From a phage: 64,000 nucleotides of DNA. Below, piece by piece: positions 1 to 13,503 of the stretch. The notes under the pieces were generated by a model that saw nothing but the letters and a program-made list of their open reading frames with translations, was not told the DNA's origin and searched no databases. The stretch lies in the sequence record PX880102.1; one strand, written 5' to 3'. Numbering within the stretch: position 1 is the first letter of the stretch; every line of letters begins with the position of its first letter. Both the position numbers and the translations under genes were made by a program.

Positions 1-693
1 TTGCTCTGGAAACTCTCTATTGATTTGTTCAAGCGCTCTATTATGTTTAGAATTACTACGAATTGAACTACATCCGCCAGGAGCTTGTGCTTTTCCAGAT
101 ACAACTAGATATTTGAACAAGGCCAAATGCGGATAACCTTGATTAATTAAATTGAGAAATGCATACATATCTTCGCATAAATCAATTTTTCCATACCCAA
201 TTTGTTCTGTCGTAAGTTTTCCGAGGTCATACCATGTATTCGTGAATCCATATGAATTTTCACGATAATTACCCCAAGATGAAGTAATTTTAAAAATTGG
301 TAGACGAGCATGGCCATGATAATACCCGCAATCCATGGCATCTTCAACGTATTGAATTAATTCATAGAACTGTTCACGAGTTAATTGATTAACTTTATCT
401 ACGCAGCGACGATCATCTCTCTTTCGCATTGAACTCATACGAATAGTAGTATCATCGTCAATCATCCAGATTCGTTGACCTGCATACATATCAGTAATTG
501 CTTTACGAGTTCCAGCAATTCCGTTTACATCATCAGGAATAGTTATAATTTTAGCTCTAGACCCATAGGCATCATAATAAGCTTTTTCTTCATGCTCACG
601 CACTACAATATGTGGTTCATAATCAGTCGGAAACATATCAAGGGCAGAAACTGCCCCGACACGCTGATAGCTTGGAATTACGAATTGAATCAT
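1..693 (-). CDS. Glycosyltransferase, N-terminal 231 codons (3' end beyond window); DxD-type, possibly beta-glucosyl-HMC-alpha-glucosyltransferase-like
   Basis: Hand translation of minus strand from ATG 693..691 (ATGA overlap with gene 42 stop) is open to position 1; contains WMIDDDTT motif; starts MIQFVIPSYQRVG, unlike T4 beta-gt as I recall it. Confidence 0.6.
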   Translation of the reverse strand, partial: MIQFVIPSYQRVGAVSALDMFPTDYEPHIVVREHEEKAYYDAYGSRAKIITIPDDVNGIAGTRKAITDMYAGQRIWMIDDDTTIRMSSMRKRDDRRCVDKVNQLTREQFYELIQYVEDAMDCGYYHGHARLPIFKITSSWGNYRENSYGFTNTWYDLGKLTTEQIGYGKIDLCEDMYAFLNLINQGYPHLALFKYLVVSGKAQAPGGCSSIRSNSKHNRALEQINREFPEQ

Positions 694-1430
694 TTCCACT
701 CACCGTTATAATCTTTTTTCACAATATGAGTTTCGCCAGTATTCCACCAATGATCAACCAAGTAAAAATGACGAGAATATACATGAAGACTTCCAACATT
801 CCATATAATAGAACCTGCTTTATACTGACGAGTTGAATCGCCTGCATTCAAATCAGATACTAATTTATCTAATACGTATTTTTGCCATGCATAATCATTA
901 CGGAATCCGAAGACCACGTCATTTGAGCGCATGCTTACTACTGCATTGACTTTCTTATCACGAATCAGGTATTGTACTGTATTCGTGCACATGAAATCTG
1001 ACATGCCGTCTTTGCTGTAGTCAAACTGCATAGATGGACGAGTATAAATCATGATACCACGTCGAGAATCAGGATTTTGACCAAGTTCAGCTAAACACAT
1101 ATCATACTGAGCATAGTTATCTTCTGACCAGATAGCCCAACCATAATTCGAGTTAATTTCGCCTTTAGAAGATGCTACCTGCTGCCAAATCTTTGGTGTT
1201 TCACCTGGAATATCTTTGACAAACAGACTTTGAGACTTGTACCATTCAAGTTCACGCTGAATGTATTCATCATTAAGAGCGCCAAAAATAAACGGTTCAT
1301 CTGCTACAAATGATGCGCCAATAATTTCAATAGTTTTAACGCCGGTTTTATCAACTACGAAATCTTTTTCCTTTAATGCAAGCCCCAAATGAAGACGGAT
1401 TTCTTCAACTGTCATAGAGTCACTAATCAT
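690..1430 (-). CDS. 42: dCMP hydroxymethylase gp42
   Basis: ORF track 246 aa, same length as T4 gp42 and sequence recognised from memory; synteny 43-imm-42. Confidence 0.9.
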   Translation of the reverse strand: MISDSMTVEEIRLHLGLALKEKDFVVDKTGVKTIEIIGASFVADEPFIFGALNDEYIQRELEWYKSQSLFVKDIPGETPKIWQQVASSKGEINSNYGWAIWSEDNYAQYDMCLAELGQNPDSRRGIMIYTRPSMQFDYSKDGMSDFMCTNTVQYLIRDKKVNAVVSMRSNDVVFGFRNDYAWQKYVLDKLVSDLNAGDSTRQYKAGSIIWNVGSLHVYSRHFYLVDHWWNTGETHIVKKDYNGEWK

Positions 1431-2223: not shown

Positions 2224-2233
2224 AACAATTTCC

Positions 2234-2482
2234 TCAAATACAAGTAGTAATTACTCCAGTGGTGCTTACACAGGTATTACCTAATTGAACACCCAGCGTT
2301 CCATTAGTATTCATATGAAGATTATCATCAATTTTTGTTGATACTTTACCATTCATGTGAATAACAGTATTAGATTCAATCACATTCTGAGTATCATTTT
2401 CAATATCAATAAATGAAACAGCTGCTAATGCAACTAAACACACTGCTAAGCAACCATAAACAATTTTCATTTTATTCTCCAA
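2234..2482 (-). CDS. Hypothetical small secreted protein
   Basis: ORF track 82 aa; N-terminal signal-like hydrophobic segment; preceded by early promoter cassette. Confidence 0.45.
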   Translation of the reverse strand: MENKMKIVYGCLAVCLVALAAVSFIDIENDTQNVIESNTVIHMNGKVSTKIDDNLHMNTNGTLGVQLGNTCVSTTGVITTCI

Positions 2483-12285: not shown

Positions 12286-12301
12286 AAGGGCCGAAGCCCT
12301 T
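12286..12301 (-). terminator. C(UUCG)G hairpin at a-gt stop codon
   Basis: AAGGGC-UUCG-GCCCUU on minus strand. Confidence 0.55.
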
Positions 12302-13503
12302 TATTTTGTAATAATGTCAAACTGTTCTTTAAAGCAGAAGCTTGAATCTTGATGCTGATACAAAAATTCATATGCTTTTTCTCGCTCACGGTCATAAAGA
12401 GCTCGGTCAGATGACAGTTCTTTAATACGTTCAAATGTTGATTCCATGTCATTTTCATCAAACCAAATGATACCGCTATCATGCGAGGTCAAAGGAGTAT
12501 TATCAACACGGAATTTTAAATTTTCGCCAGTAGATTTCCAAAATACCGGAATTGTTCCACATGCACCAAGCTCGAGATGAGTATATTCTAAAGAGCGCTG
12601 TAGATATTTTTTATCCAACTTACTCAGCTGATAACCAAAACCGGATTTACTCATACGTTCAAGCATTTCGCTATTTACATAACGGTCAAGAATTTGCGTT
12701 GGCAAATTAGGAGCAATTTTAATTTGGTCTACTTGATGAAGACGATAATACTCGTATGGAATTCCTTTTTCATTAATAGGAATGAACGCTGGAGAACGTT
12801 CCAGACCTTCCATAATAGTACTTAGCCCAACAGGTTTAAGATGTTTTTCGTGAAAATCAAACATCTGATAAAAACCTTTCCATGTAGTCGTACGACCAAT
12901 CCAACGGTTGACATTCATGTTAATTTCAGAAACATCTTTCCAGTAGGTTGATCGAACCTTCGCAATATCCATAGGAGGCTGAAAGTTGTATACAGTCGGT
13001 GCTTCTTCAATATCATCAAACAGAGAAACTGTTTCTGGATACCATTCTTTCATCAGAACTTTATTAAAATCGCCATTATCAGAATGACTAAAAATAACAT
13101 CAGCTCGACGAACAGTTTCTTCTAATCCCAAATTTCGGCGCAAAGAAAGAGAAGAATGGTCATGTTGATAAACTACAACACGAACCGAAGGTTTAATGTT
13201 ATCAATAATTTTTTTATAGTTATTAATAGTGTCTTCTTCAACTGAAGTAGCAGGAACTGAATTGATAATTAGAATATCACAATCATTTACCAGCTTAAGT
13301 GTTTTATCGTATTCTTTTGCCAATAAAACCGGAATTGAAAATGATTTATAATCATGCGCACAGTTACGAGTAAATGATTTATCTTTAGCATAAACCAAAG
13401 TTACTTCATGACCATTTTTAATAAACCAATCACGTTGCTCAAGAGAAAATTTAGTTACACCACAACCTTCAAGACCTCGAGCCATAAAAATACATACTTT
13501 CAT
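12301..13503 (-). CDS. a-gt: DNA alpha-glucosyltransferase
   Basis: 400 aa; sequence closely matches T4 alpha-gt from memory. Confidence 0.88.
   Translation of the reverse strand: MKVCIFMARGLEGCGVTKFSLEQRDWFIKNGHEVTLVYAKDKSFTRNCAHDYKSFSIPVLLAKEYDKTLKLVNDCDILIINSVPATSVEEDTINNYKKIIDNIKPSVRVVVYQHDHSSLSLRRNLGLEETVRRADVIFSHSDNGDFNKVLMKEWYPETVSLFDDIEEAPTVYNFQPPMDIAKVRSTYWKDVSEINMNVNRWIGRTTTWKGFYQMFDFHEKHLKPVGLSTIMEGLERSPAFIPINEKGIPYEYYRLHQVDQIKIAPNLPTQILDRYVNSEMLERMSKSGFGYQLSKLDKKYLQRSLEYTHLELGACGTIPVFWKSTGENLKFRVDNTPLTSHDSGIIWFDENDMESTFERIKELSSDRALYDREREKAYEFLYQHQDSSFCFKEQFDIITK

Follow-up and report, generated by a model that had tools for sequence, protein, structure and literature searches.

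A partial gene directly downstream of gene 42 in a T-even-like phage very probably encodes a T2/T6-type beta-glucosyl-HMC-alpha-glucosyltransferase

The DNA studied here, called the window in the following, is a stretch of 64,000 nucleotides from a phage (sequence record PX880102.1). Positions 1 to 693 hold, on the minus strand, an open reading frame of 231 codons that starts with the ATG at 693-691 and runs off the window edge. The gene order in the window, 43, imm.1, imm, 42.1, 42 and then this ORF, referred to below as beta-alpha-gt, matched that of T-even phages. The T4 genome has beta-gt at this place, with segA behind it. The original prediction had placed a partial ORF directly downstream of gene 42 in this very slot, and the ATGA overlap of the two genes as well as the synteny with RB3, T2 and T4 bore this out. 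The features needed for the argument are the following.

1..693, minus strand: beta-alpha-gt (alias g-gt, TAGT), the N-terminal 231 of about 280 codons, very probably of T2/T6 type; from translation, identity to T2, T6 and TB37 proteins, PF20691 and PHROG 842
690..693, minus strand: ATGA overlap of the gene 42 stop and the beta-alpha-gt start (...GAG TGG AAA TGA TTC AAT...)
690..1430, minus strand: gene 42, dCMP hydroxymethylase (hmC precursor); from the ORF list, PF00303 and the annotated gene 42 at the syntenic place in RB3, T2 and T4
661..675, minus strand: PSYQR, residues 7-11, GT2-like, after strand 1; from conservation and the alignment with AvpGT
451..459, minus strand: DDD, residues 79-81, DxD-type, after the hydrophobic strand RIWMI; from conservation, the predicted strand and the alignment with AvpGT
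12301..13503, minus strand: alpha-gt, DNA alpha-glucosyltransferase, 400 aa, intact; PF11440, E=9.3e-236
L010:5849-6926, in the record of phage G2540 (vB_EcoM_G2540): beta-gt homolog, present there as two ORFs (249 aa and 80 aa) owing to a frameshift

The beta-alpha-gt locus matched T2 and T6 on the side of gene 42; the other flank, where uvsX would be expected, is outside the window. Further away, between imm.1 and gene 43, a segment of about 228 bp (window 2224..2451) was absent in RB3 and T6 and present in D5505 and G2540. It covers most of an 82-aa ORF (2234..2482, minus strand) with a hydrophobic, signal-like N-terminus, MENKMKIVYGCLAVCLVALAAVSF, which is annotated in relatives as hypothetical only.

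The product of the ORF at 1..693 begins with MIQFVIPSYQRVG, and its residues 78-82 read IDDDT (nt 462-448, codons ATT GAC GAT GAT ACT), so that both the start and the motif given in the original prediction were recovered from the translation. The visible portion corresponds to 231 of about 280 residues, the last 49 or so codons and the stop lying past the window edge; an intact C-terminus of about 49 aa is assumed. Of the 693 DNA positions of the ORF, 21 differed between the window and TB37 and 18 between the window and G2540, and every one of these differences was synonymous, leaving all 231 residues unchanged. Such a pattern argues for a functional gene under strong purifying selection. Together with a match of the fragment to PHROG 842 (E=1.4e-75), it indicates at the sequence level a genuine gene instead of a fortuitous ORF. 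The highest DNA identity to positions 1..693 in the phage collection was 98.1%, and over 25 kb it was 97.5%. The four-nucleotide ATGA overlap would probably couple translation of beta-alpha-gt to that of gene 42. A consensus scan also picked up a terminator-like hairpin within the coding sequence, at 622-657 on the minus strand (stem 657-641, GGGGCAGTTTCTGCCCT, then a T-rich tail). It is situated about 40 nt past the start codon and is probably a chance match.

Comparison with the T2 and T6 beta-alpha-glucosyltransferases, which had been proposed as a check, gave near-identity over the 231 visible residues: 230 were shared with T2 BBC14657.1 (99.6%), annotated as beta-glucosyl-HMC-alpha-glucosyl-transferase, and 227 with T6 YP_010067197.1 (98%). 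The proteins of TB37 (CAL1641136.1) and G2540 were identical at 231 of 231 positions. The fragment scored 39.7 bits against PF20691 (TAGT, TET-associated glycosyltransferase), for which the gathering cut-off is 27.5. The same gene was present in about 475 phage records at 90-98% DNA identity, and protein homologs were found in 689 records, with 65-68% identity in T4-like phages of Klebsiella, Enterobacter and Salmonella and 53% in Serratia phages. We are therefore highly confident that positions 1..693 hold the 5' four-fifths of a gene for a T2/T6-type beta-glucosyl-HMC-alpha-glucosyltransferase in the pathway to gentiobiosyl-hmC. The locus after gene 42, the partner alpha-gt, the DxD region and the N-terminal motif are all common to the window and to T2 and T6. 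Two differences concern these motifs: T2 has H11 where the window has R11, and the T6 reference record has DD where the window has DDD.

To address the fold, AlphaFold was run with a 10-sequence alignment on P0001, a full-length relative of 280 aa with 98% identity; the model was of moderate quality (mean pLDDT 74.8, pTM 0.76). In a Foldseek comparison with the PDB, all 12 matches at E<=1e-3 were GT-A/GT2 glycosyltransferases (RmlT, WrtF and AvpGT), and TarS, TarP and chondroitin polymerase followed just above E 1e-3. TM-scores were modest (0.36-0.45, for full-length alignments) and identities ranged from 13 to 21%. A search of PDB sequences with the fragment and the family profile returned no solved relative, the only suggestive match being AvpGT at E=0.24; in this weak profile alignment IPSYQR is placed on IPTYNR and WMLDDD on FLDDDD. 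The PxY(N/Q)R-type and DxD-type motifs aligned in this way are the two canonical motifs of GT2 enzymes. P7, S8, Y9 and R11 were invariant in alignment A2, and D79, D80 and D81, at the end of a predicted strand (74-77), were conserved without exception even in relatives of 33% identity. As judged from the model, the window protein combines a GT-A fold with an acidic DxD-type motif past a hydrophobic strand, in keeping with the DxD-type GT-A enzyme that had been proposed from the sequence. By analogy, DDD would bind a divalent metal and UDP-glucose and PSYQR would contact the donor nucleotide, and a downstream acidic residue, for example the invariant D175, may act as catalytic base. GT2 enzymes are inverting, and an inverting mechanism fits the formation of a beta linkage from UDP-alpha-glucose. 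Fold and product linkage together suggest that beta-alpha-gt is an inverting, metal-dependent enzyme. Although the bacterial GT2 enzymes RmlT, TarS, TarP, AvpGT and WrtF provided the best structural matches, with the N-terminal motif and the strand-DxD element aligned, they act on teichoic acid, polysaccharide or lipid-linked glycans and not on DNA.

Gene 42 and an intact alpha-gt are both found in the window together with beta-alpha-gt. The presence of alpha-gt had been part of the original prediction; the protein encoded at 12301..13503 had 91% identity to the alpha-gt of T4 and of T6, and 396 of its 400 residues were the same in TB37 and in D5505. Judged by sequence, the gene set is that of T2/T6-style glycosylation and not that of T4, as had been suggested. 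In T2 and T6, which are devoid of beta-gt, beta-alpha-gt converts alpha-glucosyl-hmC into gentiobiosyl-hmC by attaching a glucose in beta-1,6 linkage, and the product accounts for 5% of hmC in T2 and 72% in T6 (PMC6024577, PMC13160076, PMC13216743). Deletion of beta-alpha-gt from T6 yielded DNA with about 75% alpha-glucosyl-hmC, and gentiobiose was lost (PMC13160076). In the window phage, gene 42 would accordingly provide hydroxymethyl-dCMP for incorporation at replication, alpha-gt would transfer an alpha-linked glucose onto most hmC of the DNA, and beta-alpha-gt, as a DxD-type GT-A enzyme, would use UDP-glucose to attach a second glucose beta-1,6 onto the first, forming gentiobiosyl-hmC. The chemistry of this scheme comes from published work on identical or near-identical proteins; what our own analysis shows is the sequence identity, the membership in the family, the class of fold, the synteny and the presence of alpha-gt.

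For one relative, TB37 (vB_Eco_TB37, Durham collection), the DNA composition has been measured experimentally. By HPLC/MS, hmdC made up about one third and alpha-gentiobiosyl-mdC about two thirds, alpha-glucosyl-mdC being at background only, and the authors pointed out the synteny of TAGT and T4 beta-gt (PMC13390438). Despite the identity of the visible protein, TB37 and the window share only 97% of their DNA; the two genomes are mosaic relatives and do not represent the same phage. Since both transferases are near-exact matches to those of TB37, a TB37-like, gentiobiose-rich pattern is expected. By this analogy we predict that the DNA of the window phage resembles that of T6 and TB37, not that of T2, with about one third bare hmC, about two thirds gentiobiosyl-hmC and little mono-alpha-glucosyl-hmC. 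Near-identity does not by itself fix the extent of modification, as T2, with one visible residue different, has only about 5% gentiobiosyl-hmC.

Variant alleles of the gene were observed at both motifs. Both independent T2 records (L002:1501-2343 and L007:502-1344) carry R11H together with P251S. All other aligned relatives, including those with as little as 33% identity, have R11 (codon 11, window 661-663). As T2 is the phage with only about 5% gentiobiosyl-hmC, its low gentiobiose may be due to R11H acting as a hypomorphic allele. At the DxD-type motif, an in-frame 3-nt deletion turning DDD into DD (window 451-459) was seen in the T6 reference record (L005:3135-3974) and in HP3.2 (L008:502-1341), and in these two only among about 467 records. 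HP3.2 is a lab-evolved derivative of HP3 (L009:301-1143), which has DDD, and apart from the deletion the beta-alpha-gt proteins of HP3 and HP3.2 are the same. The deletion is therefore recurrent, with the third Asp apparently being dispensable or its loss selected. A literature search on the DDD to DD change in HP3.2 found nothing relevant.

Position was the only argument for a T4-type beta-glucosyltransferase (GT-B, PF09198), which would put a single beta-glucose directly on hmC: T4 beta-gt occupies the slot after gene 42. T4 beta-gt (CAZy GT63; PDB 1JG7), located between gene 42 and uvsX, does share with the window gene the place after gene 42 and, as expected for beta-alpha-gt, the UDP-glucose donor and a beta linkage on phage DNA, but its sequence and fold are unrelated, its acceptor is hmC itself and not alpha-glucosyl-hmC, and the T4 gene has the homing endonuclease gene segA next to it. 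Strong similarity to it was looked for and not found, as the original prediction had anticipated: BLASTP of T4 beta-gt against the fragment showed no similarity (E=1.8), and tblastn over the whole 64-kb window gave no match at E<=10. The fragment belongs to PF20691 and had no match to PF09198, for which T4 beta-gt itself scores 325 bits. An enzyme of the T4 beta-gt type would have a GT-B fold of two Rossmann domains, be metal-independent and lack a DxD motif, whereas DDD is present here and the model matched GT-A enzymes only. We reject a T4-type identity outright on these grounds, that is, the BLASTP value, the different Pfam family, the missing tblastn match and the GT-A fold. A GT-A glycosyltransferase acting on something other than DNA, such as a host envelope polysaccharide or a protein, would agree with the closest solved folds, which are wall-teichoic-acid and polysaccharide GT2 enzymes. 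These folds, however, share only 13-21% identity with the model, deletion of the near-identical T6 enzyme turns gentiobiosyl-hmC into alpha-glucosyl-hmC (PMC13160076), the TB37 protein is identical over the visible part and TB37 DNA contains gentiobiosyl-hmC (PMC13390438), and beta-alpha-gt is probably coupled in translation to the hmC-forming gene 42. A non-DNA substrate therefore has a barely appreciable probability.

Two further readings concern the outcome in the phage. Should beta-alpha-gt be inactive or hypomorphic, by a 3' truncation or a weak allele, the DNA would mainly contain mono-alpha-glucosyl-hmC as in T2. The 3' end of the gene is indeed outside the window, and T2, with 230 of 231 visible residues in common, has only about 5% gentiobiosyl-hmC (PMC6024577, PMC13160076). 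The window nevertheless has the family-invariant R11 where both T2 records have H11, its visible part is identical to that of the high-gentiobiose phage TB37 (PMC13390438), and its differences from TB37 and G2540 are all synonymous, which makes a defective enzyme very unlikely. The other reading is that the window phage is of the rare G2540 type, with a divergent beta-gt homolog directly downstream, off the window, so that its DNA would also carry beta-glucosyl-hmC and depart from a pure T2/T6-like pattern. In G2540, beta-alpha-gt is directly followed, before uvsX, by a gene homologous to T4 beta-gt (54-57% identity), all three transferase genes are present in this phage (PMC8056088), and 12 phage records hold this homolog at an identity of at least 99%. 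Over the first 250 nt, G2540 was also the closest to the window (99.2%) among nine loci compared. Over positions 1-2700, by contrast, G2540 was 95.5% identical to the window, against 97.4% for TB37 over the 1,900 nt available, and the copy of the beta-gt homolog is frameshifted in the G2540 record. Of the roughly 475 records with beta-alpha-gt, no more than about 12 have this arrangement, and from this frequency we consider it very improbable that the window phage is of this type. A G2540-type arrangement would add to the function of beta-alpha-gt without changing it. If true, the phage would carry three DNA glucosyltransferases, and alpha-glucosyl-, beta-glucosyl- and gentiobiosyl-hmC would occur side by side in its DNA.

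The favored reading, a T2/T6-type beta-alpha-gt acting after alpha-gt, is of interest for the fate of the phage in its host: which defences of the host can act on phage DNA depends on the kind of sugar that hmC carries. Brig1 acts on alpha-glucosyl-hmC and Brig3 on bare hmC; the deglucosylase BapA does not strip gentiobiose, and GmrSD and BrxU act on all glucosylated forms. The second sugar would thus change the set of defences able to act, with BapA blocked and GmrSD-type enzymes still cutting. The enzymology of T2/T6-type DNA glucosylation has been studied since the 1960s and the genes were sequenced in the 1990s. The combination of alpha-gt and beta-gt found in T4 occurs in 6 of 753 genomes (PMC13216743). 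The gene in the window is an already known and ordinary one, alpha-gt with TAGT being the majority configuration in Tequatrovirus and T4 the exception. As a standard Tequatrovirus configuration it brings nothing new for biology, but knowing that the phage combines alpha-gt with beta-alpha-gt is of use in host-range prediction and in phage-therapy cocktails.
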